A DNA stretch of 64,000 nucleotides, from the NCBI GenBank assembly GCA_016182045.1, contig JACOYE010000008.1, positions 64,502-128,501 of the forward strand, in the 5' to 3' direction. The notes under the pieces are model-generated. The model worked only from the letters and a program-made list of their open reading frames with translations. It was not told the origin of the DNA and ran no database searches. How positions within the stretch are numbered: the first letter of the stretch is position 1; every line of letters begins with the position of its first letter. Shown one piece after another: positions 10,431-59,818 of this stretch. Both the position numbers and the translations under genes were made by a program. The stretch comes from Candidatus Microgenomates bacterium (GTDB taxonomy: Bacteria; Patescibacteriota; Microgenomatia; Daviesbacterales; UBA10151).

Positions 10431-10512
10431 CGTCATTGCGAGGAGTCTTCGACGAAGCAATCTCTTCTTTTGGACTAGATTGCTTCGCCCCTTCGGGGCT
10501 GGCAATGACGGA
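10431..10512. repeat. GC-rich nested-hairpin element (outer stem CGTCATTGC/GCAATGACG, inner 10-bp stem CGAAGCAATC/GATTGCTTCG, CCCCTTCGGGG tetraloop hairpin)
   Basis: read directly; shares GAGTC..TCGAAG and GGCTGGC(G)AA motifs with GC-rich inserts in topA, def, fmt and the rplK-rplA spacer. Confidence 0.5.
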
Positions 10513-10513
10513 T

Positions 10514-10927
10514 TCAGCCTTGTCTGCCAACTTCAAGATGTAACTGCTTTTTCTTTTCTTCAAAGATAATGCGGTACCTGGGAAAAAAAGCTTCTCTACC
10601 TAAAAGGTTGAAGGAAACAAGATACTCCCTTGAAAAGACAATCGGGCAGAGAAAATTTATTCCAGCAATCTCAATCTCTACTTCATGAAGATAACCTTTG
10701 ATCCTACCACCTACACCACCTAGATACATTTCCTTACCTTTCTCTATAACAAGTCCTAAAGAATCTGCAACCTCTGCACGAAAAACGGAAATTGTTGCTC
10801 CGGAATCAACCAGGGCATAAAATTCTTTTTTCTTACCAGTAAACGCTAAGGCCAATGGAATAATTGGGAATGTATTTCCTAAAGAATCAGATTCATATGG
10901 AAATACGGGTGATACTATTTTGTGCAT
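10514..10927 (-). CDS. retropepsin-like (clan AA) aspartic protease
   Basis: 137 aa; ALVDSGAT catalytic Asp-Ser/Thr-Gly motif; size of bacterial/archaeal single-domain retropepsins. Confidence 0.7.
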   Translation of the reverse strand: MHKIVSPVFPYESDSLGNTFPIIPLALAFTGKKKEFYALVDSGATISVFRAEVADSLGLVIEKGKEMYLGGVGGRIKGYLHEVEIEIAGINFLCPIVFSREYLVSFNLLGREAFFPRYRIIFEEKKKQLHLEVGRQG

Positions 10928-11148
10928 GTGAACACTAGTACATATGGACCTTCATCTTTACGAGGAACTCTAAAGGCAGCTGGCACGGTTCCAGAGGGTC
11001 TTTTATCAGTTACAGGTCTGGTGATGAGAGGTTCAATATCTTTTATTGTATCACCAACCGCTATCACTCTATCCTTAAGTGGATCAATAACCACCCATTT
11101 CCCGGCAAATTTACCCATCTGTTTTGTTGAAACATTTATCTTTTTCAT
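10915..11148 (-). CDS. small DUF5678-like protein (GKWVVI…VIAVGDT motif)
   Basis: 77 aa from the ATG just after topA (longer ORF-track start overlaps topA); overlaps the retropepsin gene by 13 nt. Confidence 0.45.
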   Translation of the reverse strand: MKKINVSTKQMGKFAGKWVVIDPLKDRVIAVGDTIKDIEPLITRPVTDKRPSGTVPAAFRVPRKDEGPYVLVFTCTK

Positions 11149-11153
11149 AACAA

Positions 11154-13205
11154 CTATATCATACTTCCTGCTTTTGGTTTTGTCCAGGAGGCAAACTTGC
11201 AACCTGGCCAGTTTTTACAGCCGTAAAAAGTTTTCCCCCGTCTGGTATGTCTGATAATAATATCTCCACCATCGTCCGGACACTTTGCATCAATTTTTTC
11301 CTCCAAAGCCTCGGTATGCCTGCATTTGGGAAAGGTGGAGCAGGCCAAAAATTTGCCAAACTTCCCTATTCTTATAACTAACTCATTTCCACACTGAGGA
11401 CACTTTTTACCGGCAAGCTCAGGTACCAGTTTCATTTTTTCCGCCTCTTTAAATGTTAGTTCCAATTTTTTCTCAAAAGGCTGATAAAATTGTCTAATAG
11501 TTGGCTGCCACTCCCTTTCTCCTTTGGCTATCTCATCAAGATCATCTTCCATTTTGGCAGTAAATGAATAATCAACAATATCCGGAAAATATTCCACTAT
11601 AAAATCATTAACAGTAAAGCCTAATTCTGTTGGGACAAATTTTCTCTCTATTCTTTCCACATAATATCTTTCTTGAATAGTGGAAATAATTGGTGCATAA
11701 GTAGAGGGTCTGCCAATCCCTAATTCTTCTAACTTTTTGATAAGTGATGCTTCATTGTAACGGGGCGGCGGTTCAGTAAAATGCTGATTGGGCAAAAGTT
11801 GAATCAGGTTGAGAGGTTCATTTTCTGAGACTTTTGGTAATAATTTTTGCCCTGTATCTTTCTCTTCATCTTCCAACTTTTCTTTACCATAAAGTTTTAA
11901 CCAACCTTCAGATTTAATCACTGATCCAGTAGCTCTTAAAAGATAAGCATCAGCTGAAACATCAACGGTGGTTTGGTCTAAAATGGCCTCAGCCATCTGA
12001 CATGCCACAAACCTTTTCCAAATCAGATCATAAAGTCTAGCATGATCTTTATTCATACTTGATATTTGTCTGATGGCTTGAGACTGACGTCTGACATCTG
12101 TCACTCTGATCGCCTCATGTGCCTCCTGGACATTTTTAGATTTTGATTTATAGATTCTAGGCTTTAGGGGAAGATATGATTTACCCAAAAAATCTGCAAT
12201 ATATTTGCGGACAGAAGATATGGCTGAGGCAGAAATATTAACCGAATCGGTTCGCATATAACTTATCAGTCCATGTTCATAAAGGTTTTGAGCTATCATC
12301 ATGGTTTTTTTGGCTGAAAATCCCAGTTTATTGGAAGCAGCTTGTTGCAAAGTGGAAGTAATAAAAGGAGGGTAAGGGTAACGTCTGACTTCCTTTTGTG
12401 TAACTTTGGAAACCAAATACTCAGCCTTTTCCAAGTTTTCAACATGTTCGTCTGCCTCTTCTTTGTTCTTTATCTCCAGTTTCTTACTGTTTTGCTCAAT
12501 TAACATGGCGATGAAACTGTTACCTGTACCTCCTCGAGTCTGAGCGACCGATTCGGTCTGAGACTCACGGTCGAAGACCTCGGAGTCGAAGACCTGTACC
12601 CTATCACCTGTTAACTCTGCTTCTATACTCCAATACTCCACCGGTCTAAAGATTTTTATTTCCCGTTCTCTTTCCACAATTAATCTGAGTGCCACTGACT
12701 GAACCCGTCCGGCAGACAAACCTTTCTTAATTTTTTGCCAAAGTAAAGGAGATAATTTATAACCCACTAATCTATCCAGAATTCTTCTGGCAACCTGTGC
12801 ATCTACTAGTTTGAGATTTATTCCTCTAGGATTCTTAAATGCTTCTTTTATTGCTTCTTCAGTTATTTCATGAAAGACAACCCTATTGACGGAATTTCGA
12901 ATTTGCGAACTCTTTAGGAGTTCGCTTATGTGCCAGGCTATTGCCTCACCTTCCCGATCCGGATCTGTGGCCAGCCACAAAGTGTCAGCGCTTTCTGCCA
13001 CCTTTTTCAACTCATTGACAACCTTTCTCTTATCTCGTGGTATCACGTACTGAGGTTCAAAATTATGTTCCACATCCACTCCAAATTCAGACTTTGGCAG
13101 ATCTCTCACATGACCCATTGAGGCCTCAATTTGATATTTGTCACCTAAAAACTTCTGCAGAGTGCGAGCCTTTGTTGGTGATTCCACTATTACCAGATTA
13201 TTCAT
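11154..13205 (-). CDS. topA: DNA topoisomerase I
   Basis: 683 aa; TOPRIM N-terminus (VIVESPTKARTL), catalytic core, C-terminal Zn-ribbon repeats (CPQCG…, CPDDGG…). Confidence 0.95.
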   Translation of the reverse strand: MNNLVIVESPTKARTLQKFLGDKYQIEASMGHVRDLPKSEFGVDVEHNFEPQYVIPRDKRKVVNELKKVAESADTLWLATDPDREGEAIAWHISELLKSSQIRNSVNRVVFHEITEEAIKEAFKNPRGINLKLVDAQVARRILDRLVGYKLSPLLWQKIKKGLSAGRVQSVALRLIVEREREIKIFRPVEYWSIEAELTGDRVQVFDSEVFDRESQTESVAQTRGGTGNSFIAMLIEQNSKKLEIKNKEEADEHVENLEKAEYLVSKVTQKEVRRYPYPPFITSTLQQAASNKLGFSAKKTMMIAQNLYEHGLISYMRTDSVNISASAISSVRKYIADFLGKSYLPLKPRIYKSKSKNVQEAHEAIRVTDVRRQSQAIRQISSMNKDHARLYDLIWKRFVACQMAEAILDQTTVDVSADAYLLRATGSVIKSEGWLKLYGKEKLEDEEKDTGQKLLPKVSENEPLNLIQLLPNQHFTEPPPRYNEASLIKKLEELGIGRPSTYAPIISTIQERYYVERIERKFVPTELGFTVNDFIVEYFPDIVDYSFTAKMEDDLDEIAKGEREWQPTIRQFYQPFEKKLELTFKEAEKMKLVPELAGKKCPQCGNELVIRIGKFGKFLACSTFPKCRHTEALEEKIDAKCPDDGGDIIIRHTRRGKTFYGCKNWPGCKFASWTKPKAGSMI
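12531..12591. repeat. GC-rich in-frame insert inside topA (coding …FDSEVFDRESQTESVAQTRGG…) flanked by 9-bp direct repeat ACCTGTACC
   Basis: sharp local GC rise; contains CTGAGCGACCGA and GGAGTCGAAG, both also present in the rplK-rplA spacer. Confidence 0.45.
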
Positions 13206-13288
13206 TGTTACTATTGTTACATTGTTACATTGTTAAAAACAATTCAACAATTTAGCAATGAAACAATTTTACTGGTGTTGTCAAGATC
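13206..13288 (-). promoter_or_regulatory. topA leader/promoter region with ATTGTTAC x4 and inverted AACAAT/AATTGTT repeats; TTGACA on minus strand at 13276-13271
   Basis: read directly from sequence. Confidence 0.35.
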
Positions 13289-13543
13289 TTACTCAAAATC
13301 ACTATCCAAAACTTGAGGATTAACTTTCTCCAACTCTGCCTCCAAATCAGTAGCGGAATCAAACTGAAAAGTTTTGGGGGCGTTGGGGGTGGGGATGGGT
13401 GTTGGAGCTTTAGAAACAGTAGCAGATGATTGACTGGCAGGGCTAACTAAATTAGCTTTCCACCCCAGGGGTGCAAACCTAAATAATAAAAATCCCAAAA
13501 CTATAAAAACTATAATAATTATAGTTATTATTTTTTTATTCAT
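13289..13543 (-). CDS. hypothetical membrane-anchored small protein
   Basis: 84 aa; N-terminal TM helix, Pro/Thr-rich linker. Confidence 0.35.
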   Translation of the reverse strand: MNKKIITIIIIVFIVLGFLLFRFAPLGWKANLVSPASQSSATVSKAPTPIPTPNAPKTFQFDSATDLEAELEKVNPQVLDSDFE

Positions 13544-13561
13544 AATTCATAATTCTTAATT

Positions 13562-13924: not shown

Positions 13925-13988
13925 AGATATCTATCTTATACTATTATCAAACTTTGGATAAACAAAATTTATTAATCGATAGTATAAT

Positions 13989-18741: not shown

Positions 18742-19245
18742 TTAGAAATCCATATTATCTGATTCAATCACCATTACCCAGTCTTTTATCCCTAGTTTTT
18801 TTATAAAATCCCTGAGGGCTTGGGTACAGTTTTTCTTAGTTATCCAAACACTTTTTTGTAGCTGTTTAAAACCTAACCATTTTAGTTTATACCTTAATAG
18901 ATCGCGCGCTACTCTTCTTTTCTCCGGAACATCCCATATCACTATTCTCCATTTTCCATCCCACGGCTCATCAATTAATTTCATTTTTGTCCAAAGAGCC
19001 TTATCTCTTCCTGAATCTGTTAATCTAACAACCAATTCCTTATCATCAATTAGCTCAACAAATCCATTCTCTCTCAACCTTTTAAGAGCAAGTGCAAGGG
19101 TTGATTTCTTAAGTGGTCTGTCCCACCAACCGTAATAGGCGTAAAGATGCGGCTTATATGCAAAATGTTCAAATCTAATATACCCATCAACAGACTTCTC
19201 TAGAGTCAGAAGAACGAAATTAGTAAGGCTTTTTTTAGTAAACAT
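18742..19245 (-). CDS. PaaX-family-like transcriptional regulator (short form)
   Basis: 167 aa; N-terminal wHTH, C-terminal WDGKWRIVIWDVPEKRR…LGF…LQKSVW matching the PaaX C-terminal signature; paralog of 28111-28614. Confidence 0.6.
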   Translation of the reverse strand: MFTKKSLTNFVLLTLEKSVDGYIRFEHFAYKPHLYAYYGWWDRPLKKSTLALALKRLRENGFVELIDDKELVVRLTDSGRDKALWTKMKLIDEPWDGKWRIVIWDVPEKRRVARDLLRYKLKWLGFKQLQKSVWITKKNCTQALRDFIKKLGIKDWVMVIESDNMDF

Positions 19246-28110: not shown

Positions 28111-28614
28111 CTAGCGTCCGACATTATCTGATTCTAAAACAATTACCCAATCCTCTATTCCCACACTTTTTATAAATTCCCTTAAAACTTTTGTACAGTT
28201 TTTCTTAGTTGCCCAAACACTTTGTTGCCAATGAATAAAACCCCACTTCTTGAGGCTATCCCTCAATAAATTTCTTGCCTGTCTTCTTTTCTCAGGAACA
28301 TCAAATATGACTAGTCTCCACTTTCCATCCCACTTCTCATCTGACAGCTTAATACTTTCCCAAATAGCCTTTTGTCTTCCGTGATCTGTCAGCCGATATG
28401 CCAATTTTTCATCGCTGACAAAATCAATCATTCCTCTTTCCCTTAATCTTTTAACAGCCTGAGCAAGTGAGGCTTTTTTTAATGGTCTATCCCAACCAGC
28501 ACCCCATGCATAGGAGTATGAATGGTGGATTAAATCATCATATCTTACATATCCATCTATAGATTTTTCTAATGTAAGAAGAATAAACTTGGCGATACTA
28601 TTTTTTGTCCCCAT
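28111..28614 (-). CDS. PaaX-family-like transcriptional regulator (short form), paralog 2
   Basis: 167 aa; same architecture as 18742-19245 (…WDGKWRLVIFDVPEKRRQARNLLRDSLKKWGF…QQSVWA…). Confidence 0.6.
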   Translation of the reverse strand: MGTKNSIAKFILLTLEKSIDGYVRYDDLIHHSYSYAWGAGWDRPLKKASLAQAVKRLRERGMIDFVSDEKLAYRLTDHGRQKAIWESIKLSDEKWDGKWRLVIFDVPEKRRQARNLLRDSLKKWGFIHWQQSVWATKKNCTKVLREFIKSVGIEDWVIVLESDNVGR

Positions 28615-28693: not shown

Positions 28694-30733
28694 ATGCTTG
28701 ATAAGACTATTACATATTCCTTTTATCTCTTATTTTTCCTAACTCCTCTTTTTTGGACTTCCTTAAATTACGAACTGTTTGAGTATAATAAGATGTTTCT
28801 TACTTATGGATTAACTGTAATCATTGTCGGGGCATGGATTCTAAAAACGATAAACGATAAACGATTAACTTTTAAGCGCACTCCCTTGGATATTCCTCTT
28901 CTACTTTTTTTGGGAGCTAACATTTTTTCCACCATTCTTTCTATTGATACTCACATATCAATTTGGGGCTATTACTCAAGACAAAACGGCGGTCTTTTAT
29001 CTTTGATTGCTTATCTTCTACTCTACTGGGCATTTGTTTCAAATATGGATCTTAAAAAATCTTTGAATCTTTTAAAAGCAGCTTTCTTATCTGGTTTTAT
29101 TATTTCTCTATATGGCATTTTGGAACACTTCGGGGTGTCTCCTTCTTGTGTAATTCTAAGAGGTGAGTTTAATGCCTCATGTTGGGTGCAAGATGTCCAG
29201 GCCAGAGTGTTTGCTACCTTGGGCCAACCAAACTGGATGGCTGCCTATTTGGCCATGCTTATTTTTCCTGCCCTTTATTTCCTCCTCACATCCAAAAGCC
29301 GCATACTACATACTACATACTACATACTACTGATTATTATGTACCTGGCTTTTACCTTCACCTATTCCAGAGGACCAACATTAGGATTAATTGGTGGATT
29401 AGTGGTTTTTATTGGCCTTTATTTTATTCAGAATACTCGGAAAACTCAGAAAGACAGCGAATCAGTGTATCAGAGAATCCGATTATCTGAATTTCTGATT
29501 TCTCAGATATTCCGAGTCCTTCTGAGTTTTCTGGCAATTAACCTCCTTTTTGGGTCTGCCTTAACCAACTTCAGGTTAGTTTCCAAATTTGCCGCACCTG
29601 CCAGACCCGCTATCGCCCTTCCCGCCACAAACACTACTCAGCTTGAAACAGGAGGAACAGAATCCGGCCAGATCCGTTTTATAGTCTGGCAAGGAGCTCT
29701 AGAGATTTTCAAACACTACCCATTATTTGGTTCAGGAGTAGAAACCTTTGCCTATTCTTATTACCAATTCAGACCTGCCGAACACAATCTTACCTCAGAA
29801 TGGGACTTTCTCTATAACAAAGCGCATAACGAATACCTTAATTATTTGGCAACAACCGGAATCTTAGGTCTTAGCGCTTATAGTATAATCATTATAACTT
29901 TTATAATCTTTATACTAAAAAAGTTCAAAAAAGGGAATCTGCTGATTTTAAGCCTCCTTGCTAGCTACATTAGCTATCTAATCTACAACTTCTTCCTCTT
30001 TTCAGTAGTCACGATCGCCATCTTTTTCTATCTTTTCCCAGCCATTGCTTTCGTGGCCATAGACTCCACAAAGCCACTGAAATTTTCTCGACTTCTCACT
30101 TCTCACTTCTCACTTCTCACTTCCTACCTCTATCGTCGTACCTTCTATACCAAAATCGCCAAAGCTTTAGTCATTCTTTCTACCATCTACCTTCTATTTT
30201 CCATCTTCCAGCTCTGGTATGCCGATACCCGTTTTGCCAAGGGACAGAGAGCCTCGGAATTAGGCAATCCAGGACGAGCTTATAATTTACTGACCGAGGC
30301 TTTACAATTAAATGGTAATGAACCATTTTACAGAAGCGAACTTTCCTTTGCTGCAGCAGCTTCGGCTATAGCTCTTGAGGATTCCGAGGCCACCCTATCC
30401 GCAGCCCTAAAAGATGAGGCAATCAGAGAAATAGAGCTGGTCCTTAAAAATAGTCCCCAAAATGTCTCTTTTTGGCGGACAGCCATCAGAACCTATTTTG
30501 AGTTATCAGGCTTGGATAAAAATTACACTGATAAAACTCTTCAGGCTTTAGATCAGACAATCAAGCTGGCCCCAACTGATCCAAAACTATACTACAACAA
30601 GGCTTTAATACTCCAAACAATCAACAAAACTCAAGAAGCCATTAAGTCTTTGGAGAAAGCAATTGAGCTAAAACCGAACTATCAGGAAGCCATCCAGCAG
30701 CTTGAGGAAGCAACTTCATCAGCAAAACCATGA
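28694..30733 (+). CDS. O-antigen ligase/polymerase (Wzy)-like polytopic membrane protein with C-terminal TPR repeats
   Basis: 679 aa; ~12 TM helices with a large periplasmic loop, C-terminal TPR-like helices; contains three internal repeat/IR segments. Confidence 0.65.
   Translation: MLDKTITYSFYLLFFLTPLFWTSLNYELFEYNKMFLTYGLTVIIVGAWILKTINDKRLTFKRTPLDIPLLLFLGANIFSTILSIDTHISIWGYYSRQNGGLLSLIAYLLLYWAFVSNMDLKKSLNLLKAAFLSGFIISLYGILEHFGVSPSCVILRGEFNASCWVQDVQARVFATLGQPNWMAAYLAMLIFPALYFLLTSKSRILHTTYYILLIIMYLAFTFTYSRGPTLGLIGGLVVFIGLYFIQNTRKTQKDSESVYQRIRLSEFLISQIFRVLLSFLAINLLFGSALTNFRLVSKFAAPARPAIALPATNTTQLETGGTESGQIRFIVWQGALEIFKHYPLFGSGVETFAYSYYQFRPAEHNLTSEWDFLYNKAHNEYLNYLATTGILGLSAYSIIIITFIIFILKKFKKGNLLILSLLASYISYLIYNFFLFSVVTIAIFFYLFPAIAFVAIDSTKPLKFSRLLTSHFSLLTSYLYRRTFYTKIAKALVILSTIYLLFSIFQLWYADTRFAKGQRASELGNPGRAYNLLTEALQLNGNEPFYRSELSFAAAASAIALEDSEATLSAALKDEAIREIELVLKNSPQNVSFWRTAIRTYFELSGLDKNYTDKTLQALDQTIKLAPTDPKLYYNKALILQTINKTQEAIKSLEKAIELKPNYQEAIQQLEEATSSAKP
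29303..29330. repeat. (ATACTAC)x4 perfect heptanucleotide tandem repeat inside the Wzy-like CDS
   Basis: read directly; unit length is not a multiple of 3. Confidence 0.85.
29437..29534. repeat. ~100-bp imperfect inverted-repeat (MITE-like) element inside the Wzy-like CDS
   Basis: termini CGGAAAACTCAGAAAG / CCTTCTGAGTTTTCTGG (14/16 complementary), internal TCAGA/TCTGA palindromes; encodes the hydrophilic stretch …NTRKTQKDSESVYQRIRLSEF…. Confidence 0.4.
30084..30127. repeat. (TTCTCAC)n heptanucleotide tandem repeat (4 perfect + degenerate units) inside the Wzy-like CDS
   Basis: read directly; the same repeat occurs inside fmt at 31863-31897. Confidence 0.85.
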
Positions 30734-30993
30734 AAAAGCTTGGTAGAATCATTGCCGAATCCAGATTTAAGAATAGGCCTAAAAATATCGCCTATGAATT
30801 CCAGCAATATGGAGTATACCTTGCAGAATCATTAAATGATACCAAACATTATTCTTTATACATCAAACTGGCCAAAGAAGTGGATAGAAAAATTTTGGAA
30901 GAAGCGCTAAATTTTACAAAGGAGTATTATGGTGCCAAATCCAAAGCTAAAGTATTTATGTGGAGATTGACGCAATTAAGGAAAACTGGCTAA
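30730..30993 (+). CDS. hypothetical protein
   Basis: 87 aa ORF overlapping the Wzy-like stop and the def 5' region; no recognisable family. Confidence 0.3.
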   Translation: MKKLGRIIAESRFKNRPKNIAYEFQQYGVYLAESLNDTKHYSLYIKLAKEVDRKILEEALNFTKEYYGAKSKAKVFMWRLTQLRKTG

Positions 30994-31013
30994 ATTTCTG
31001 TTACAATTCCCTC

Positions 31014-31580
31014 ATGCTTCAAGTAATTAAAGCGCCTGATTCAAGGCTGCGGGTCAAGACAACGGCTGTCAAAAAGATTACTCCTGCTTTAATTAATACC
31101 CTGAAAGAGATGATTAAACTGACCAAAACTTTTAAAGAGCCAGAAGGGGTAGGTTTGGCCTCCACTCAGATAGGTTTGGATGAGAGCTTTTTTGTGGCTC
31201 GCCTCGATGAGTCGGCCCGCCTAGACGCGAGGCTGGCGAAGCGGGCCAAAGATGGTCAAAGATTTATGATGGTGATTAATCCCAAAGTTATATCTATGGG
31301 CAAGCGCAGCAAAAAATACTTTGAAGGTTGTCTGTCCACCCCCAATATTTGGGGTGAGGTCAAAAGAGCTACCCAACTTAAGGTTTCTTATCAGGATGAA
31401 AATGGAAAGATGATCACTAAATCCTTAAAAGGTGTACCTGCCTGGATATTTCAACATGAGATTGACCATCTAAATGGCATTCTTTTCCAGGATAGAGTTT
31501 TGGAGCAAAAGGGTAAGTTTTATAAGTTTACTGGTAAAGATAAAACCGGCACAGATATGTTTGAGGAGGTGACAATTTGA
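31014..31580 (+). CDS. def: peptide deformylase
   Basis: GVGLASTQIG, EGCLS, HEIDHLNG motifs; start placed at MLQVIKAPD (ORF track extends to 30960); carries a GC-rich in-frame insert. Confidence 0.85.
   Translation: MLQVIKAPDSRLRVKTTAVKKITPALINTLKEMIKLTKTFKEPEGVGLASTQIGLDESFFVARLDESARLDARLAKRAKDGQRFMMVINPKVISMGKRSKKYFEGCLSTPNIWGEVKRATQLKVSYQDENGKMITKSLKGVPAWIFQHEIDHLNGILFQDRVLEQKGKFYKFTGKDKTGTDMFEEVTI
31196..31250. repeat. GC-rich palindromic in-frame insert in def (GGCCCGC…GCGGGCC; coding …ARLDESARLDARLAKRA…)
   Basis: read directly; local GC far above the AT-rich surroundings; lies between the conserved Def blocks. Confidence 0.45.
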
Positions 31581-32521
31581 GTATAATTTCCAAACTCAAT
31601 ATGAAAACATTACAACAACCACAAGTTTGGCCCAAGCTTTATGAAACTATTCTGATTAAGGAGGAGATTAAAAAATATTTACATAAGATGCCAAGACACA
31701 ACATAGAAATTGTTTTTTGGGGCTCTGATCCATGGTCTGTCTATGTTCTGAAAGCCTTAGAGGATAATTTTGATGTCAAGGCTATAGTTACTGCTTCGGA
31801 TTCATCTGTAGCAAATTATTTTAAAGGTCCAATCCTAACTCCTGAAAAGCTAGACCATGACTTTCTCACTTCTCACTTCTCATTTCTCACTTCTGATCTA
31901 TTTATAGTTGCCTCCTATGGCAAAATAATTCCACAATCCATCTTAAACATTCCAAAATTCGCAAGTTTAAATGTCCATCCATCACTACTCCCCAAATACA
32001 GAGGTTCATCTCCGGTACCGGCCACCATTCTTATGGGAGACAAAATTACAGGAGTAACCATTATTAAGATGGATGCTAAAGTGGATCATGGGCCGATTGT
32101 TTCTACAAAAGAAATTAGCTTAACAGGACAGGAAAATTCCCTATTTTTGATCAATAAATTATTTCAACTCGGAGCAGATCTGTTAGTAAAAATAATACCG
32201 GATTATATGACAGGCAAAATAAAATTAATGCCCCAAAATCACCTAAAAGCCACATATTGTGAAAGGCTAACCAGAAACAGTGGTTATTTTAAAATTGATA
32301 ATCCTCCATCACCTGAGAAACTGGATAGAATGATCCGGGCATATTATCCCTGGCCGGGAGTTTGGACCCGCTTTCGCCCTTCGGGCTCCAGCGGGCAAGC
32401 CAAAATAGTAAAATTCCTACCAGGTGGGCTACTTCAAATGGAGGGTAAAAAAGCTATATCTTACCAAGACTTCCTCAACGGCTACCCAGATTTTCCGATC
32501 AAAGAGCTTCTCAAAGTATGA
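31577..32521 (+). CDS. fmt: methionyl-tRNA formyltransferase
   Basis: formyltransferase N-domain (NVHPSLLPKYRG) and C-domain; a later start at MPRHNIEIVFWG (31688) is possible; 4-bp overlap with def. Confidence 0.85.
   Translation: MSIISKLNMKTLQQPQVWPKLYETILIKEEIKKYLHKMPRHNIEIVFWGSDPWSVYVLKALEDNFDVKAIVTASDSSVANYFKGPILTPEKLDHDFLTSHFSFLTSDLFIVASYGKIIPQSILNIPKFASLNVHPSLLPKYRGSSPVPATILMGDKITGVTIIKMDAKVDHGPIVSTKEISLTGQENSLFLINKLFQLGADLLVKIIPDYMTGKIKLMPQNHLKATYCERLTRNSGYFKIDNPPSPEKLDRMIRAYYPWPGVWTRFRPSGSSGQAKIVKFLPGGLLQMEGKKAISYQDFLNGYPDFPIKELLKV
31863..31897. repeat. (TTCTCAC)n heptanucleotide tandem repeat inside fmt
   Basis: read directly; encodes …LTSHFSFLTS…, as the Wzy-like copy encodes …LTSHFSLLTS…. 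Confidence 0.85.
32351..32400. repeat. GC-rich palindromic in-frame insert in fmt (CCCGCTTTCGCCCTTCGGGCTCCAGCGGG; coding …RFRPSGSSGQA…)
   Basis: read directly; TTCGCCCTTCGGGC core resembles the 10431-10512 element. Confidence 0.45.
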
Positions 32522-32994
32522 AATTCTTCCAGATAAGCTTCGACGTCTGAAATCACAGAGCTTTGTCTTGCTGCATCCATATCAAAACCTGATCTTAGGA
32601 ATCCTGCCCTGCAAATACGTTTAGCTGCATCATATAGTGGAGAAAAAATTGCATTTGCTAAAGGCAAAGAATTAATTCCACTCCTCCTCACATAATCTAC
32701 ATATCTATGATTGTAGGTGGGGTCCAAATAAAACTCTAAAGCTTCATAATCTCTCCGTGCTGCTCCAATATGATTTGCGGCAGTCATTTCTAAGAAAACT
32801 CCAAGCACATCTCGTGTGGTACCCCTGATAAGATGTTTATTCGACAAGCTTTCTATAATATCTCTATTAATGGATCTGGCAACCCGTCTGGCTTGATATC
32901 CTACCATCAAAGATCGTATTCTTTCATTTGATTTAATCAAAAATACTTCAATAGACTCAGGTATTATCATTTTAGTAAAGAAATCAAACAGCAA
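32482..32994 (-). CDS. hypothetical protein
   Basis: 170 aa, Arg-rich helical, no confident family assignment. Confidence 0.4.
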   Translation of the reverse strand: MLFDFFTKMIIPESIEVFLIKSNERIRSLMVGYQARRVARSINRDIIESLSNKHLIRGTTRDVLGVFLEMTAANHIGAARRDYEALEFYLDPTYNHRYVDYVRRSGINSLPLANAIFSPLYDAAKRICRAGFLRSGFDMDAARQSSVISDVEAYLEEFHTLRSSLIGKSG

Positions 32995-33217
32995 TACTTG
33001 TTGGAATCACGTTAGGAGTTATTAAGGGTTTCTTTACTATCCTTAAACATTTAGTACAGTATTTTTTACCCAAAAAGGTGTGCAAATTTACTTTTTGGAC
33101 TCTTTTGTGAATTGGGGCACGCAAAGCCCAAACTCCCCCCGCTCCTGAGGAACCTTTCTTATGTCTGGAGAAAGCCACTATTTTTTTACCTTTTCCGCAT
33201 CTTGAACAGATTAACAT
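32984..33217 (-). CDS. rpmB: 50S ribosomal protein L28
   Basis: 77 aa; C..C…NLH…C.KC Zn-ribbon L28 pattern; carries a GC-rich in-frame insert encoding GSSGAGGVWALRAP (33114-33151). Confidence 0.55.
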   Translation of the reverse strand: MLICSRCGKGKKIVAFSRHKKGSSGAGGVWALRAPIHKRVQKVNLHTFLGKKYCTKCLRIVKKPLITPNVIPTSIAV

Positions 33218-37402: not shown

Positions 37403-38938
37403 ATGCCTGAATCATTATCTGTAACTCCAGAAGACCCTCCTCCCTTATCATCCGAGCTTAGATTGGCCCTAGAGATTTCTGAAGATGAATCCAACAATGA
37501 GATAATTCATAAAGCAATTGTCCGTCAGATAGTTAAAAGTGATCTTCTTACTACACTTCTATCTATTGCTGATGATCTTGAGATTGATCAATTATCACCT
37601 GAACACATTCCTCCCTCAATTTATAAAGCCATGCAAGATACCTCTTTGGAGATCCCTAAAAGGAGTGAGGAGGAGTTTAGTTTCCCATCCTCTTCAGAAC
37701 AAGATTTGGAAATTGCCCAATACAGTACCTATAGTGCAGAGTCTTTTAAAAGGCAGGCAGAAGAAACTAAAAACCTTTTAGAAAAAGAAAGATATCAAAT
37801 TATGGCAGCTGAGGCAAGGCTTATACCCACAATCTTCGTAGATGGCATGGTACGTGAGACATTAGACAAAGGGGGTAATGAGGGTTGGGATGGTAACAAA
37901 ATAAAAGTAAAAGAGGATGGATTACCGCTTTCTCAACTTAGAAGGCAATATTTTACCGGCACAATAGACAACTTGAGTGATTATGATGCTTTTAAAAAGG
38001 CTGTGGAAGGATCTTCTTTATCACCAATGGCAGAATTAATGCTTGATTTATATAAAAAGCTCAAAGCATTCGGAATAGACTCATTTCAGGATTTTTTCAA
38101 CATGATGGGACAGGATAAAGTATCAGTAAAGACACGCTCAGAGTGGGCTGTGAGTTTTTTCCAGGAAGATAACAATCAGGAAATACTTGAGGAGAAAATA
38201 AAGGAATTGGTAAAAGAGGGAGGTATTCCCGAAGTTCATCAGCAAACCTTTGCCGCTTTTGCCTTGGCAGCAAGATTACTTGATGAGGAAGATGGAAGAG
38301 AAATTTTGGAACCTAAGGAAATGCTTAAAAGGATCGCAGAAAAAGAAGGGATTAAATATGATGATGAAGATGTTCGATTTTTAGGAAATCAGCCAGTAGC
38401 CATCCCCTCAACAGCCCTATTAGCTCTAATAGATGCAGAAGGAAAAAGTGCGGTAGGCGCAACACTTTTACTACCTGAGGGTATGATATCAAGACATGTT
38501 ACCCACGAAGTTGCACATATTATACACGGATTGTTCATTAGAAAAATATCTCCTTTACTGGCTGCAAAGCTACCATCCCAGGCAGCTGAACGGATTGCCA
38601 CCTATTTAGAGTATAAATATGGTGGAGGGTTCACCCGTTATGCCCGATTGTCCGCTTCAAGATATGTTCTCTTAACTGAAGCCCAACTTGCTCATATTGA
38701 TGAGCTGGATGCGGCTTGTGAATCTGAAAATTTAGAAGAAATAGAGAGGATACTAAGGGACTCTCTGAAGACACCAACAGAGAACATGGAAAAAACCTTT
38801 GGAGAAACAGTTGCAGGCGAAACTTATGGTTATCCATTTGGCATTTTAGGCCTGTATGCTCATGCCAGTAGCCTGGTAGAGGGTGATCTGTTAAAACCAT
38901 TAACGCAGATTATAAAAGAAGCAATAACAATCACTTAA
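37403..38938 (+). CDS. hypothetical acidic protein with an HExxH motif (possible zincin-like domain)
   Basis: 511 aa; …VTHEVAHIIHG… at residues ~355-365; otherwise unrecognised. Confidence 0.45.
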   Translation: MPESLSVTPEDPPPLSSELRLALEISEDESNNEIIHKAIVRQIVKSDLLTTLLSIADDLEIDQLSPEHIPPSIYKAMQDTSLEIPKRSEEEFSFPSSSEQDLEIAQYSTYSAESFKRQAEETKNLLEKERYQIMAAEARLIPTIFVDGMVRETLDKGGNEGWDGNKIKVKEDGLPLSQLRRQYFTGTIDNLSDYDAFKKAVEGSSLSPMAELMLDLYKKLKAFGIDSFQDFFNMMGQDKVSVKTRSEWAVSFFQEDNNQEILEEKIKELVKEGGIPEVHQQTFAAFALAARLLDEEDGREILEPKEMLKRIAEKEGIKYDDEDVRFLGNQPVAIPSTALLALIDAEGKSAVGATLLLPEGMISRHVTHEVAHIIHGLFIRKISPLLAAKLPSQAAERIATYLEYKYGGGFTRYARLSASRYVLLTEAQLAHIDELDAACESENLEEIERILRDSLKTPTENMEKTFGETVAGETYGYPFGILGLYAHASSLVEGDLLKPLTQIIKEAITIT

Positions 38939-38982: not shown

Positions 38983-39357
38983 ATTATCCTAAAGGACATT
39001 TAAAGTAGATGGCCTAAAGGATGACTGCCCAAAAGGCATCCCTACCTTGCACGTTAATAGCCGAAGATATTTTTCCTCCACTGTTTGTTAAGTCTTGGGT
39101 TGATCCGAAGTTGGCATCCTTGTACCGTCTGGTACAGGATCCCACAGGATTCCCACTTTTTTCCCAGGGGGAAAAACTTCTGCCAACGGCTAGCGTAGGG
39201 AGTTATTATAATTTTTTGGACAAATTCTAAAAACTGGTGACTGCAAATTATAGACAGGTTGCAGATTTGTCCAATTACTTCAATCTCGTTCCCGGTTTTT
39301 TTGTGATAGAATTTATTTACAAAGTTATACAGCAATTTTCAAGAGGATTCTTCCTTT

Positions 39358-41580: not shown

Positions 41581-41910
41581 TTATTCTTTCCTTAAATATT
41601 TCGGTACTGGTAAGCCTACATGGGCTAAGTTTGCCACAATATTACCCACCAAGGTGGCAGCAATAAGAACAAATGATGCCGGCACTATAAATGCCAAATC
41701 TGGCTGAGCCACTCCAACCAGCTCAACTACGGCAAATACGAATACATAAGGTAATACTGCATCATGTAGGTAGTGGGCCACCTTTGACAACCTAAAGGTA
41801 TTTTTGGCCAATGATACTCCCACCCCAACTAACCAGTCAGCCATCACTAAAAGCACTATAAAGCGCATAAAATCAGTTTGAAAAAGAGGCAACGGATCCA
41901 AATCTCTCAC
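41581..41910 (-). CDS. holin-like small membrane protein (phage holin / toxin-secretion holin family-like)
   Basis: 109 aa; 3 TM helices, …DWLVGVGVSLAKNTFRLSKV… resembles holin signature. Confidence 0.5.
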   Translation of the reverse strand: MRDLDPLPLFQTDFMRFIVLLVMADWLVGVGVSLAKNTFRLSKVAHYLHDAVLPYVFVFAVVELVGVAQPDLAFIVPASFVLIAATLVGNIVANLAHVGLPVPKYLRKE

Positions 41911-42000
41911 CCCCTTTCTTTAATAGTTAACTTAAGCATTACATGTAAATTAGGAGGTTGTCAAATATCTCGCTCTTAAGTCCCACCGAAACTATACTTG

Positions 42001-42447
42001 TTATTTGCTCATCCTAAAATACGGGCTGGGGTCAATAAATCCCAAATAGCCATTGTATAAATCGGGCTTTTTTAATTTAATGCCAAAATGGAGGTGTTCA
42101 CCAAAAGCAGCACCTGTCTTCCCTGAGAGCCCAACCACTTCCCCAATCTTGACCTTATCACCAACACTTACTTTGGATGATTGAAGATGAGCATAAATAC
42201 TGATACCCCAGGGGTGTTGGAGAGTAACAGATATCCCCCACTCCCCACTGTCAGAGGACTGGATGACTTTTCCTCGATCAGATGATAAAACTTCAGTTCC
42301 CTCTGACAGTCCATAATCTATCCCATGATGACCTTTGATACCCCATTGGGCAAATTTCTTTTTGATTTCTTTATTATCCGATTGATCCCCAAAGGGAAAA
42401 GTAACCGGAAAAAAACCATTAAAAGGCAGTCTAAGTTTAAGTTTCAT
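42001..42447 (-). CDS. M23-family metallopeptidase (LytM/lysostaphin-like)
   Basis: 148 aa; HHGIDY…, …YAHL…, …GEHLHF… zinc-ligand motifs. Confidence 0.8.
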   Translation of the reverse strand: MKLKLRLPFNGFFPVTFPFGDQSDNKEIKKKFAQWGIKGHHGIDYGLSEGTEVLSSDRGKVIQSSDSGEWGISVTLQHPWGISIYAHLQSSKVSVGDKVKIGEVVGLSGKTGAAFGEHLHFGIKLKKPDLYNGYLGFIDPSPYFRMSK

Positions 42448-42491: not shown

Positions 42492-42507
42492 AGCGCCGAC
42501 GTAGCTT
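42492..42507 (+). other. 16-bp duplicate of the 5' end of tRNA-Thr (AGCGCCGACGTAGCTT)
   Basis: exact direct repeat of 42553-42568; the upstream copy does not continue as a tRNA. Confidence 0.4.
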
Positions 42508-42558: not shown

Positions 42559-42633
42559 GCCGACGTAGCTTAGTGGCAAAGCACTTCATTGGTAATGAAG
42601 AGAGCGCGGGTTCGATCCCCGCCGTCGGCTCCA
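42559..42633 (+). tRNA. tRNA-Thr (anticodon GGU), CCA encoded
   Basis: acceptor GCCGACG/CGTCGGC, anticodon loop TTGGTAA, T-arm GCGGG-TTCGATC-CCCGC, 3' TCCA. Confidence 0.9.
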
Positions 42634-54921: not shown

Positions 54922-54933
54922 AATTGGAACATT

Positions 54934-56392: not shown

Positions 56393-56489
56393 TTATACTC
56401 CCTCTTGTCAAGAAATGCAAATTTAGTAGGTTTTTATATGATGTAATACGAATTTTGAGACCTTTTAAAAAGCCCAAAATGGAGGATAT

Positions 56490-56780: not shown

Positions 56781-56808
56781 ATCCACTGATATTTAGTATA
56801 ATTTATGA

Positions 56809-57264
56809 ATGGAAAGTTCTGAAGTACCAAGTAAAGGAATTAAAGGACTGGAAAAAGTTAAAAGAGGGCTTTCAGAGCTGGGAAACTATTTTAAGGAAAC
56901 ATTCGGTGTAGGTCCTGATAAAGTACCTGCTGAAAAAATTGATCAAGCAGCAGTGGCCAAAGTAATTCTTTATGACACCTTGGCAGAGGGTATGCGTTTG
57001 GGAGATCATTCCCAAATCCCCTTCTCTTTAACTACCCTGCTTGACAACATGGGCCATGTAGTCATGTCCCCAACAGATAATCCCAGAGAGAAATTTCCAG
57101 ATGAATATTTGGCAGTTAGAAGGCAGCTTGATATATTGGTGGGGGACAACATTTTAGTAATTGTTCCTCTTAAGGAACCTGACTCTAATGGAGAAAGACT
57201 TTATTATCAAGTTGTTAACAAAGATGCCTTAAAGAAGATTGCTTCAAAACAATCTCAAAAGTGA
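56809..57264 (+). CDS. hypothetical protein
   Basis: 151 aa; no family. Confidence 0.4.
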   Translation: MESSEVPSKGIKGLEKVKRGLSELGNYFKETFGVGPDKVPAEKIDQAAVAKVILYDTLAEGMRLGDHSQIPFSLTTLLDNMGHVVMSPTDNPREKFPDEYLAVRRQLDILVGDNILVIVPLKEPDSNGERLYYQVVNKDALKKIASKQSQK

Positions 57265-57290
57265 GGGCGGTAACCTTAGTTCTCGACTGC

Positions 57291-57318
57291 TTGACAAAAC
57301 TATAGTATGTGATACTAT
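57291..57318 (+). promoter_or_regulatory. sigma70-like promoter (TTGACA-16-TACTAT) ~12 nt upstream of the FabD-like ATG
   Basis: read directly. Confidence 0.4.
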
Positions 57319-57330
57319 GGTAGCCTCATT

Positions 57331-58335
57331 ATGGTAGAAACAGCAACACTAAAAAGACCTGCCTCATCAACTGCTGAGTCTTTGGAAATACCAGCTGCCA
57401 TTCTTTTCCCAGGACAAGGACTTCCACCAAAAGAGATTTGTTCCTACTATCAATTATTAACTGAACTAAATCCTGCCTTAACCACAAGGTATCTATCTTT
57501 GGCCCAGCAAGCACTGGAAAAAATCTCAGGTTCCCCCAGTTTTAACATTGAGACAGCTTTAAAAGATGCATCTTCACCTGATTTTAGAAAAACCTCCTTT
57601 GTCCAACCGGTAGTGTATTCTTTAAGTGTGCTCGCTTATGAAATAATGCGACCCAGATTAAGAGAGAGGAATATTATTCCCGATGTTATGGCCGGACACA
57701 GCCTTGGTGAATATTCTGCCATGACCGCGGCAGGTGTTTTTCCCTTCGAGGAAGGAATTGAAATTGTCACCTATAGAGGTAAGGTTATGCAAGAAGCTTG
57801 TGATGAGAATGAAAGTAGTCTAACCAGCATCAGCGGTCTAAATTTAGAAACGGTTCGAGATGAGATTTGCTTCCAAACTGGGGCAGAAATAGCTTTAGTT
57901 AATGCTCCTGATTTAATAGTGGTTGGTTCCCGTCCTGATCAAATTCCAAAAATTAAGGCAGTGGCTGATCAAATAGCAGGACAAAGTGTGAGGGTTGTAA
58001 CACTTGAGACAGCGGGAGCCTTCCATACACCTTTTATGATACCAGCGGCCGTAAATCTGGCAAGATTTTTAGCAAATTATGAATTTACCGATCCGCAATA
58101 CCGATTCGTCAATAATTATACAGGAGGTTTAGTAGAAAGCGGTGTAACTTTACGTGATCATTCATCAGAGAGTATGACCAGGCCAGTTTGGTGGGCTAAA
58201 TCTTTACAAACTATGAAAGAGTTAGGGAGTAAGACCTTTTTAGAATCAGGCCCAGGTGTGTCACTGAAACAAATAAATAAGAGAAATGGTATTGGAGAGG
58301 ATCAAACCAAAAACATAGTTGATATTTCCCCATAA
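57331..58335 (+). CDS. fabD: malonyl-CoA:ACP transacylase-like acyltransferase
   Basis: 334 aa; ILFPGQG and GHSLGEYSA motifs. Confidence 0.75.
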   Translation: MVETATLKRPASSTAESLEIPAAILFPGQGLPPKEICSYYQLLTELNPALTTRYLSLAQQALEKISGSPSFNIETALKDASSPDFRKTSFVQPVVYSLSVLAYEIMRPRLRERNIIPDVMAGHSLGEYSAMTAAGVFPFEEGIEIVTYRGKVMQEACDENESSLTSISGLNLETVRDEICFQTGAEIALVNAPDLIVVGSRPDQIPKIKAVADQIAGQSVRVVTLETAGAFHTPFMIPAAVNLARFLANYEFTDPQYRFVNNYTGGLVESGVTLRDHSSESMTRPVWWAKSLQTMKELGSKTFLESGPGVSLKQINKRNGIGEDQTKNIVDISP

Positions 58336-58357
58336 CTTTTGTTATACTTGACAAAGT

Positions 58358-58381
58358 GGGTCGAATAATCGACCCTTTTTT
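58358..58381 (+). terminator. Rho-independent terminator-like hairpin GGGTCGA-ATAA-TCGACCC + TTTTTT
   Basis: read directly; 22 nt after the FabD-like stop, 6 nt before secE. Confidence 0.5.
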
Positions 58382-58386
58382 AATAA

Positions 58387-58581
58387 ATGCCCAACATTAT
58401 TTCATTTTTTAAAGAAGTTAGGGAAGAGTTAAATAAGGTGGCCTGGCCCACCAGGGAACAAACTGTCCGCTATACCATTTTGGTGGTTTTAGTAGCAGTT
58501 GTGGTGGGATTATTCTTAGGAGGCCTGGATTATATCCTAACTGCTCTCACCTCTTTTATATTAGGAAAATATGGACGATAA
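58387..58581 (+). CDS. secE: preprotein translocase subunit SecE
   Basis: 64 aa; amphipathic N-term (KEVREELNKVAWPTREQ) + single TM; immediately upstream of nusG. Confidence 0.75.
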   Translation: MPNIISFFKEVREELNKVAWPTREQTVRYTILVVLVAVVVGLFLGGLDYILTALTSFILGKYGR

Positions 58582-59275
58582 GAATCAGAACAACTCAGAA
58601 AACTCAGATAAATCAGAAGATCAGATTGTCACTGAGTCAGAAAGCCAGAACGAGCAAGTATCTGACACTCTGGTTTCCTCTGATACCTCTGATTCTTCTG
58701 GCACACCGAGTCCTTCTGAGTCTTCCGAAAAACCAACCAAACCTGACAATCCCAATGCCAAATGGTATGTAGTCCATACCTATTCCGGGCATGAAAATAA
58801 AGTGGCAGCCACCTTAAAGCAAAGAATTGAATCGGAACATTTGGAAAATAAAATTTTTGAAGTATTAGTACCCATGCAGGATAAAATTGAGATCAAATCC
58901 GGTAAAAAGATGACTGTCAAGGAAAAAATCTTTCCCGGTTATATTCTGGTAAAAATGCTCCTGGATGATCAATCCTGGCTGGCGGTCAGAACTACCCAGG
59001 GAGTGACTGCCTTTGTGGGCATGGGTAATAAACCCACTCCTATTTCCGATCAGGAAGTGCAAACCATAGTTAAGTTTACTCAAGAGGAAGCCCCAACTTT
59101 CAAACAAGTGTTTGCTACCGATGATACTGTTAAAATAATAGACGGTCCGTTTGCCGAGTTTATCGGAAAAGTGGATTCTGTAGATCAGGAAAAAGGAAAG
59201 GTCAGGGTTCTGGTCTCCATATTTGGTCGCGAGACACCAGTGGAATTAGATTTTTTGCAAGTGCAGAAAATATAA
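58571..59275 (+). CDS. nusG: transcription termination/antitermination factor NusG (with ~60-aa acidic Ser/Asp-rich N-terminal extension)
   Basis: NGN domain (KWYVVHTYSGHENKV) and KOW domain (…GKVDSVDQEKGKVRVLVSIFGR…). Confidence 0.9.
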   Translation: MDDKNQNNSENSDKSEDQIVTESESQNEQVSDTLVSSDTSDSSGTPSPSESSEKPTKPDNPNAKWYVVHTYSGHENKVAATLKQRIESEHLENKIFEVLVPMQDKIEIKSGKKMTVKEKIFPGYILVKMLLDDQSWLAVRTTQGVTAFVGMGNKPTPISDQEVQTIVKFTQEEAPTFKQVFATDDTVKIIDGPFAEFIGKVDSVDQEKGKVRVLVSIFGRETPVELDFLQVQKI

Positions 59276-59277
59276 CC

Positions 59278-59343
59278 GTTATAATCGCTCTGCGATTACA
59301 TCGCGACGCTTCTTGTAACGCGTTGCGTTATAACAATTATAAT
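59278..59343 (+). ncRNA. structured AT-rich element, copy B (same architecture as 26258-26322), directly upstream of rplK
   Basis: conserved blocks as in copy A; stem sequences CGCGACGC/GCGTTGCG (one G-U, favouring + strand RNA) replace CGTTCAC/GTGAACG of copy A. Confidence 0.45.
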
Positions 59344-59356
59344 AATTATACTAAAA

Positions 59357-59785
59357 ATGGCAGGAAAAAAAGTAAAAACTTACATTAAATTAAACATCCC
59401 GGCAGGCTCAGCTACTGCTGCTCCTCCTGTGGGACCTGCCCTGGGTCAGCATGGTTTACCTATCATGGAGTTTGTCAAGGCCTTTAATGAGAGAACAGCC
59501 GACAAACAGGGTAATATTTTGCCGGTGGTGATCACGGTTTATGAAGATAGGACCTTTTCATTTATCACCAAAGAACCACCTGTTGCGGAAATGGTTAAAA
59601 AAACTTTAGGATTGGAAAAAGGCTCAGGCAGGGCCCTAAAAGAACCTGTGGGTGAACTTACAAAAGAGCAGGTAAAAGCTATAGCTGAAGCTAAAATGCC
59701 GGATTTGAATACCAAAGATATTGAAGCTGCCACAAAAATTGTGGAAGGTACAGCCAAAAGTATGGGGGTAAAGGTGACTCCGTAG
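59357..59785 (+). CDS. rplK: 50S ribosomal protein L11
   Basis: 142 aa; [11 protein letters not shown] signature. Confidence 0.95.
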
Positions 59786-59818
59786 GAGTCATCCTGAGCG
59801 ACCGAAGGGAGTCGAAGG
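59776..59818. repeat. GC-rich hairpin-containing spacer between rplK and rplA (GACTCC-GTAG-GGAGTC; CTGAGCGACCGA; GGAGTCGAAG)
   Basis: shares two 10-12-mers with the topA in-frame insert. Confidence 0.45.

Follow-up and report, generated by a model that had tools for sequence, protein, structure and literature searches.

The 64-kb stretch of DNA analysed here (the window; 39% GC) belongs to a Candidatus Daviesbacteria genome (Microgenomates, candidate phyla radiation, CPR), and our subject is a set of short, mostly GC-rich segments with possible hairpin structure, which lie between its genes or inside its reading frames. An earlier note on this DNA had listed seven such islands and read them as one family of inserted palindromes comparable to the Rickettsia palindromic elements (RPEs). 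All seven are indeed found where they had been placed, but only six of them are GC-rich, the segment in the Wzy-like gene being purine- and AT-rich, and their hairpin potential, which we expressed as a fold z-score against dinucleotide shuffles, is uneven. Moreover, islands of 40 nucleotides (nt) at 65% GC or more occur 21 times in the window, mostly in ordinary coding sequence. The genes concerned and the elements that lie outside them are the following:

8652-10340, minus strand: pyrG
11154-13205, minus strand: topA
28694-30733, plus strand: Wzy-like gene
30960-31580, plus strand: def
31577-32521, plus strand: fmt
32984-33217, minus strand: rpmB
58571-59275, plus strand: nusG
59357-59785, plus strand: rplK
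59823-60692, plus strand: rplA
10431-10510, no strand assigned: element A, an intact head-to-head dimer of two hairpin units
59788-59820, plus strand: element F, one unit lying between rplK and rplA, GTC-ATCCT-GAGCGACCGAAGGGAGTCGA-AGGAT
59774-59822, plus strand: the whole rplK-rplA insertion, about 50 nt and lineage-specific, in which a hairpin GACTCC-GTA-GGAGTC is followed by F

GC-rich 9- to 12-mers show no over-representation in the window, which by itself is insufficient to define a repeat family. Comparisons were made with relatives and other CPR genomes, used as numbered loci (L001, L002 ... L116), the nearest relatives being Candidatus Daviesbacteria metagenome-assembled genomes whose TopA is at most 79% identical. 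Family assignment was made by direct similarity and empirical backgrounds; a MAFFT alignment of the units placed the 3' stems of ATTGC-type and ATYCT-type units one column out of register. When the seven sites are scored by local alignment against a library of copies taken from other genomes only (background mean 8.65, sd 1.26, 99th percentile 12.5), F reaches 24 and A 18.5, while fmt (11), topA (10), def, rpmB and the Wzy-like gene (9.5 each) stay at background; the idea of one family at seven places is not supported. The same two elements are singled out by a strict unit grammar (GTCAY-NNN-SA…RA-N'N'N'-AT), which finds 30 units in 1.84 Mb against a shuffle mean of about 7 and has exactly three matches in the window, namely A-left (10432-10461), A-right (10479-10509) and F (59788-59820). 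This grammar, together with the library-similarity test, took over from a loose one (GTCAY and a 6-bp stem) that was dropped as non-discriminating, with 125 matches against about 98 in shuffles.

Element A is laid out as CGTC-ATTGC…GCAAT-CTC, a spacer and AG-ATTGC…GCAAT-GACG, with a CGTC tag on both arms. It lies in intergenic DNA upstream of pyrG, 4 nt past the stop of an aspartyl-protease-like open reading frame (ORF; 10514-10927, minus strand), and positions 10425-10518 fold into a three-way junction with a z-score of -4.8 on one strand and -5.7 on the other. Over 80 nt A aligns with a dimer in L037, and the corresponding spacer of L116, the closest relative, lacks it and holds a different simple hairpin instead. 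Element F is identical at 27 of 29 positions to a unit in a distant CPR locus, L062, whose TopA is only 45% identical.

The relatives reveal the wider family. Five fmt orthologues (L081, L083, L096, L097 and L100) carry an in-frame insert after KFLP that reads VTLSEAKG…AAQNDR, …SRIRGNDN or VILRPKAEGS…IVQNDK, and the underlying DNA is a GTCAY…RTGAC palindrome of 54-90 nt (dimers of 54, 75, 87 and 90 nt); L093 and L094 have a single hairpin at this site. A search for inverted repeats with GTCAY/RTGAC termini recovers more copies at CPR loci, A of the window included. The basic unit consists of a (C/T)GTC tag, a stem starting AT, a loop with a possible nested GC-rich hairpin and a 3-nt tail, and two units placed head to head make a GTCAT…ATGAC dimer of 54-116 nt, each dimer folding with arm hairpins in addition to an outer and an inner stem. 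Relatives contain at least 14 dimers, of which 10 are C/T heterodimers. These 10 were found without any criterion of pairing within the arms, and a perfect 5-bp stem is present in 19 of their 20 arms, ATCCT/AGGAT in one arm and ATTCT/AGAAT in the other. Since the stems are kept within the arms although the arms mismatch each other at those very positions, the unit hairpin is the conserved structure.

Both short and long units are found. The short units of relatives (n=23) have the tag TGTC in 18 cases and CGTC in 1, and the tail CCA in 13 and CTA in 7; as judged by eye, their stems are mostly of 8 bp starting AT and their loops mostly of 4-6 nt, as in TGTC-ATTCCCGC-GAAA-GCGGGAAT-CCA. Short units with loops of 4-6 nt come from L015, L037, L038, L062, L083, L093, L094 and L097. 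The long-loop units, which comprise the window copies and many of those in relatives, have 5-bp stems and loops of 12-35 nt, often with a nested GC-rich hairpin. Unit density in relatives runs from 0 to 5.4 per 10 kb (samples of 2.6-22 kb). Canonical dimers lie in frame in fmt, topA, nusG (L114), the N-terminal extensions of L1 and the loop of the Wzy-like gene of relatives, and every intragenic copy preserves the reading frame of its host; one of the three frames per strand is closed by the TGA within ATGAC, while the other two are open. No target-site duplication is evident when filled and empty sites are compared.

These properties recall the CGTC-tagged repetitive extragenic palindromes (REPs), with which the comparison was made by their textual definition and not by consensus sequences (PMC3733652). 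By that definition, a unit has a CGTC tag (often TGTC, also CCTC), a stem of 8-9 bp whose first two positions are A-T/T-A, a loop of 4-5 nt and a 3-nt unpaired tail with the consensus CCA; there are many copies per genome, mostly as head-to-head dimers that are often heterodimers, without a dedicated transposase, and they lie near gene 3' ends or, as in-frame intragenic copies, encode 20-30 amino acids (aa) (PMC3733652). The short units of Daviesbacteria fit this in tag, AT stem start, 8-bp stem, loop and CCA/CTA tail, and A is likewise CGTC-tagged on both arms and a head-to-head dimer. In contrast, the stems of A and F, which start AT as in all copies, are of 5 bp (ATTGC/GCAAT and ATCCT/AGGAT), and their loops of 17-20 nt enclose nested hairpins; F is tagged AGTC, and the tails in the window are CTC, CTA and TTT, the last being that of F. 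A and F are members of a palindromic repeat family, the short units of which conform to the definition of CGTC-tagged REPs, and the elements of the window are a new long-loop variant of the CGTC-REP/RPE-type repeat, in a phylum for which we found no prior report. The superfamily is known from Proteobacteria, Chlorobi, Bacteroidetes, Spirochaetes and Thermotogae, none of them CPR (PMC3733652, Di Nocera, De Gregorio & Rocco 2013). Our literature searches on the motifs, on the pseudo-peptides (AFAGMT, FAQNDK and others) and on REP or RPE together with CPR or Patescibacteria returned nothing relevant besides that paper. In an Rfam scan of the window, three tRNAs alone passed the gathering threshold, and none of the sites had a match at E<=10.

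Element F may also bear on how its neighbours are expressed. In the closest relatives, L112 and L115, rplK and rplA overlap by 8 nt (…GGTGGGTAAAACT…) and there is no spacer. In the window, the hairpin GACTCC-GTA-GGAGTC contains the new rplK stop codon TAG, and the 3' end of F, GAAGGA, lies 5 nt ahead of a new rplA ATG, which is the position of a Shine-Dalgarno sequence; the fold of the spacer is modest (z -2.4). Elsewhere the same junction holds a different CGTC-type dimer (L113) or an AT-rich palindrome (L114). Measured against the overlapping arrangement of the closest relatives, the insertion has uncoupled rplK and rplA and now gives rplK its stop codon and rplA a predicted ribosome-binding site, GAAGGA. 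An L1-binding leader or another known RNA in the spacer is not supported, as there is no Rfam match at E<=10 and the spacer is missing in the closest relatives.

One could propose that the elements are primarily selected cis-acting RNA or DNA structures and not selfish repeats, acting as 3' stabilisers or terminators, as L11-L1 translational operators or as pause sites in coding regions. The double role of the F region at its junction would suit this idea, and so would the covariation of the stems within arms, the hairpin in fmt that is 100% identical over 42 nt to L082 and L084 in a gene 65% identical, and the place of A just past a stop codon, as is usual for REPs with a supposed action on RNA (PMC3733652). 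However, A and F are missing at the orthologous sites of the closest relatives and are therefore not conserved regulators. Nor is there a T-run after A or any Rfam match even at E<=10, the copy density is as variable among relatives as described above, and the fmt hairpin of L085 is without 2 of its 5 outer pairs, uncompensated. We regard selected cis-acting structures as a highly doubtful explanation for the elements.

Inside genes, the statement that the copies are in-frame extra sequence was borne out by orthologue alignment for topA, def, fmt and the Wzy-like gene, but not for rpmB. In addition, two in-frame hairpin inserts were absent from the earlier list, those of pyrG and rplA. The intragenic segments are:

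12522-12608, minus strand: in-frame insert in topA, about 25 aa, GDRVQVFDSEVFDRESQTESVAQTRGG
9294-9323, minus strand: in-frame insert in pyrG, 10 aa (SAVAKAMADK), with the hairpin TCCGCC-GTCGCTAAAGCTAT-GGCGGA
60441-60461, plus strand: in-frame insert in rplA, 7 aa (PPAGGSA, in the context TPPAGGSADG), with the 16-nt palindrome TCCGCCAGCTGGCGGA
31209-31253, plus strand: in-frame insert in def, about 15 residues, ESARLDARLAKRAKD; core of 76% GC with the stem GGCCCGC/GCGGGCC
32375-32395, plus strand: in-frame insert in fmt, 7 aa (RPSGSSG), after the conserved PWPGVWT
29437-29534, plus strand: segment of the Wzy-like gene, about 66 nt extra, a purine- and AT-rich inverted repeat with 23-nt arms

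An unbiased scan of 34 window genes with their relatives yields just three genes, pyrG, topA and def, with window-specific inserts of 4 aa or more, and these inserts are 52-76% GC against 40-42% in the host gene.

The topA insert has no counterpart in the TopA of E. coli, where residues 229 and 230 are contiguous, or in L002-L008. With F, 47 kb apart, it has in common an exact 12-mer, CTGAGCGACCGA, and a collinear 10-mer, GGAGTCGAAG. The claim that these two sites share motifs was confirmed by a word-7 BLAST of each segment against the window, since none of 300 first-order Markov simulations of the window gave a chain score as high. The other motifs said to be shared between sites, TTCGCCC..TTCGGG and GGCTGGC.AA, appear only at BLAST E values of 10-22 and are at chance level. 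Read antisense, the insert is GAGTC-TGAGCGACCGA-(31 nt)-GGAGTCGAAGAC, that is, an F-like unit without the ATCC/GGAT stem and with internal duplications. At the exact codon position of this insert, L116 (TopA 79% identical) has a canonical 84-nt heterodimer, GTCATCCTGAACGAAGTGAAGGATCTC…GAGATTCTTCGGCTTCGCCTCAGAATGAC, between EAELT and F(V/I)A(I/M)LIEQNSKKLEIKNKEE, and L037 has a 75-nt dimer in its topA. Inserts of 6 aa or more occupy the window site in 24 out of 120 Daviesbacteria TopA proteins and another site, around residue 418, in 28, and many of the inserts carry signatures such as SSSVIASEAKQS…EIATS, ILNEVKDLSRMRDS…, …QTPRNDG or the VIASEAKQS…PRNDG type. The seven listed sites include two genuine family members, A and F, and one decayed copy, the topA insert, which on its similarity to F and its position we take, with moderate confidence, to be an internally duplicated copy in antisense orientation. 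The 9-bp direct repeat around the segment, once put forward as if it flanked an insertion, is not a target-site duplication: the spacing of its copies, 70 bp, is not divisible by 3, so that the duplication would shift the frame, and by our estimate chance alone would give about 20 repeats of this kind in 64 kb. As a separate observation, TopA of L116 has a second GC-rich insert, DDSPRFAQSDAEGVGEAGE, at residues ~440-460 (11300-11400 region), in an acidic GKExEEE loop that has no insert in the window TopA and is variable in many of the 120 proteins.

The inserts of pyrG and rplA are small and have parallels far from their own genes. That of pyrG is missing in L001 (84% identical) and L002; its hairpin matches at 21 of 23 positions a hairpin nested in an element of L093, and similar copies are found in intergenic DNA of L028 and in L062. 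Of 30 Daviesbacteria L1 proteins, that of the window alone has the rplA insert, whose palindrome TCCGCCAGCTGGCGGA is dispersed: L089 has it in the loop of def, L097 in the unit loops of two elements and L115 in two unrelated genes.

It could be argued that all the intragenic inserts arose by local slippage or tandem duplication in tolerant loops, with only A and F belonging to the repeat family. Several of them do look like this: topA has a tandem 15-nt repeat (TCGAAGACCTCGGAG/TCGAAGACCTGTACC), def has ARLD…ARLD, rplA has CAGCTGGCGGAT/CAGCTGACGGAT and some L1 relatives have 3-4 aa at the rplA insert site, and the hotspots could be merely permissive loops. Yet the rplA and pyrG hairpins are near-identical to ones in unrelated genes and intergenic DNA of other genomes, the topA insert has 22 collinear bases in common with the distant F, intact dimers sit at the very same codons in relatives, and GC-rich inserts in AT-rich surroundings are not expected from local duplication. 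We find it unlikely that slippage accounts for all the intragenic inserts.

The remaining sites are without significant similarity to the family. The def insert lies in a variable loop between the GxGxAAxQ and EGCLS motifs; it is missing in 9 of 13 relatives, the rest of which have different hairpin inserts in that loop, its fold is modest (z -2.0), and its ARLD…ARLD repeat suggests a partial local duplication. The fmt insert forms a GC-rich hairpin, CCCGC…GCCC-TTCG-GGC…GCGGG (z -1.2), and its RPSGSSG is common only to L082, L084 and L085, the other relatives having W-NGK. Around it, positions 32360-32401 match L082 and L084 exactly over 42 nt in genes about 65% identical overall, the longest exact match across the 4.6-kb Wzy-def-fmt-rpmB region, and L085 deviates at 5 positions of this stretch without compensatory changes; a recent exchange of the segment or a constraint at the nucleotide level are possible explanations. 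In the Wzy-like gene, the inverted repeat is strong (z -3.6), sits in a loop/transmembrane region and is missing in the minimal orthologues L088 and L091, and the same loop holds a GTCAT…ATGAC dimer in L097 and other palindromic inserts in L094 and L096. It resembles the 5' region of nusG (58580-58728) and is part of another sequence family. At def, fmt and the Wzy-like gene we thus have lineage-specific hotspot inserts of the same general kind, whose relation to the family is unproven. The rpmB segment (33114-33151, minus strand) is rejected as an element, being ancestral Gly/Ala-rich coding sequence: HKKGSSGAGGVWALRAP is invariant in 14 relatives, the L28 of D. radiodurans aligns there ungapped, and the fold z-score is 0.0.

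Could all the islands be of the rpmB kind, that is, ordinary coding sequence rich in Gly, Ala, Pro and Arg codons, with generic hairpin potential and motifs shared by chance? For rpmB this holds, most of the 21 GC-rich islands of the window are plain coding sequence, def, fmt, topA and the Wzy segment stay at library background, and most BLAST matches between sites have E values of 1-30. Against this stand A and F, which are non-coding and match copies from other genomes far above background, as well as the topA, def, fmt, pyrG, rplA and Wzy segments, which are lineage-specific extra sequence. Moreover, all window-specific inserts are GC-rich within AT-rich genes, and relatives have canonical dimers at the same sites. 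The matches of A and F and the orthologue alignments thus refute ordinary coding sequence as a global explanation, and we give it very little credence.

Taken together, it is probable, in our view, that the window holds sparse, non-autonomous hairpin repeats of the CGTC-REP/RPE type, comprising A, F, the decayed copy in topA and the small inserts of pyrG and rplA. The pyrG and rplA sequences recur as dispersed modules or as nested unit loops in other CPR genomes, elements at orthologous sites are present in some lineages and missing in close relatives, and the same protein loops and gene junctions are occupied by different copies in different lineages. Such repeats would spread in trans through a hairpin-dependent single-strand mechanism, for which the agent could be an HUH/tyrosine-type transposase encoded elsewhere or template switching at replication forks. 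Selection would then purge intragenic insertions unless they are in frame, free of stop codons and placed in surface loops or termini, and the surviving copies would decay by substitution and slippage into GC-rich hydrophilic stretches.

Several observations weigh against this interpretation. The window copies depart from the canonical unit in their 5-bp stems and 17-20-nt loops and, for F, in the AGTC tag and TTT tail, and they are few, three solid units over the 64 kb. For the topA insert the hairpin is not significant (z -1.4/0.0), and its score of 10 is at background against the non-window library. This insert also resembles a local tandem duplication (TCGAAGACCT twice), as does the def insert with its two ARLD, and the rplA insert can be read as a 12-nt tandem duplication (CAGCTGRCGGAT twice); given this look, slippage could have created some of the inserts and not merely modified them. 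No REP-associated tyrosine transposase (RAYT) or Y1/HUH transposase domain was found among 20 small ORFs of the window. Finally, a neighbour-joining tree of Fmt scatters the insert-bearing sequences but is poorly resolved, and it does not separate recurrent gain from one gain followed by many losses.

It is tempting to go further and to speculate that Daviesbacteria, and probably other CPR, have an active and targeted system of hairpin mini-elements that delivers modules repeatedly to the same codons. The modules in question are the GTCAT units, the PPAGG palindrome TCCGCCAGCTGGCGGA and the pyrG-type hairpin, and the recurrent sites are the two TopA sites, fmt at KFLP/LLQ, the def loop, the rplK/rplA junction and the N-termini of L1 and NusG. 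If targeting were true, either an undescribed enzyme would integrate the modules with specificity for site or structure, or a templated mechanism linked to replication would be at work. Some embedded hairpins, for example the 42-nt-identical one in fmt, may also be retained at the nucleotide level for mRNA function. We consider such a system improbable.

RPEs themselves, RPE-1 to RPE-8, lie in frame in conserved and often essential genes of a small genome, RPE-1 being about 100-150 bp long, and were reportedly described by Ogata et al. in 2000 and 2002. The likeness consists in in-frame insertions absent from orthologues (topA, pyrG and rplA in the window; fmt, topA, nusG, L1 and the Wzy-like gene in relatives), in the addition of hydrophilic peptide segments, and in presence or absence that varies among close relatives. 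In contrast, the host here is a free-living or episymbiotic CPR bacterium and not an intracellular alphaproteobacterium, and translation of the inserts is predicted from their intact frames. RPE-1 is longer and unrelated in sequence, and a link, an indirect one by way of the CGTC superfamily, exists only for RPE-4 and RPE-6: CGTC-1 and CGTC-4 of R. conorii are RPE-6 and RPE-4, respectively, while CGTC-1 of Neisseria is dRS3 (PMC3733652). The comparison of the window with RPE-like insertion thus stands for the lineage and for part of the window, but not for all seven sites.

Other mobile hairpins offer parallels as well. As in the REP/REPIN-RAYT systems (GTAG-tagged REPs mobilised by RAYTs), short hairpin units occur as inverted doublets, are non-autonomous, are presumed to be mobilised as single-strand hairpins and leave no evident target-site duplication at the Daviesbacteria sites; unlike them, the Daviesbacteria tag is GTC(AT) or (C/T)GTC and not GTAG, and the copies are far more diverged than REPINs within one genome. 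The QMITEs of Coxiella burnetii are similarly small non-autonomous inverted-repeat elements in genes that affect protein evolution (PMC5896051). Miniature inverted-repeat transposable elements in general differ by terminal inverted repeats derived from insertion sequences and, usually, by target-site duplications, neither of which is seen here.

Genomes of CPR/Patescibacteria are small, streamlined and usually described as repeat-poor. With REP/RPE-type repeats in CPR, the range of an old superfamily of repeats grows to take in a bacterial radiation that is both very deep and very large. The extra peptide segments in TopA, Fmt, Def, PyrG, L1 and NusG indicate a source for some of the insertions and N-terminal extensions of Daviesbacteria proteins. 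For annotation, the elements yield spurious small ORFs (presumably with peptides such as …FAQNDK and …SLRMT), displace gene starts and undo translational coupling (rplK-rplA is an example), and they can mislead ortholog alignment and structure prediction. Moreover, the recurrence at the same codons provides a natural data set on the movement of hairpin repeats without a known transposase. The occurrence in CPR would also support the published view of these repeats as ancient (PMC3733652).

Further palindromic sequence was seen at the N-termini of two of the proteins named above. In L1, positions 59935-60018 (rplA codons ~38-66) form an inverted repeat with 30-nt arms (z -4.0) that encodes VVEDRESKIE…PSTIKKPSSTIHH in an N-terminal extension. 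This AT-rich palindrome recurs in the L1 genes of L112 and L113; L037 has it within topA (10349-10396) and L115 in, or adjoining, intergenic DNA. It thus represents a second dispersed palindromic family that lands in coding sequence. At its N-terminus, NusG is extended by about 55 aa rich in Ser, Glu and Asp (58580-58728, codons ~4-53), whose DNA is partly palindromic (z -2.7) and resembles the Wzy inverted repeat, with CCGAGTCCTTCTGAGT in common; this extension is missing in the closest relatives L112 and L115, and the extension of L114 differs, with a GTCATTGCGAG…AGAGTGAC dimer.

Elsewhere in the window, a possible degenerate unit, AGTC-ATCCT…AGGAT-AAT, lies at 38986-39025 (minus strand) in the intergenic DNA between the ORFs 37403-38938 and 39054-39335; it fits the loose grammar only and may be a chance match. 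An 11-12-mer, GCCGACGTAGC(T), starts both tRNA-Thr genes (39358 and 42559), and a third copy at 42495-42505, 64 nt upstream of the second gene, may be a tRNA 5' fragment. Two paralogous proteins of 167 aa, at 18742-19245 and 28111-28614 (both minus strand), have a PaaX central, Cas2-like domain (E 4e-25 and 6e-22), and no CRISPR array was noticed. Finally, at 41581-42447 (minus strand), an ORF of the phage-holin family adjoins an M23 peptidase ORF just upstream of the tRNA-Thr at 42559, and this pair could be the remnant of a lysis cassette.

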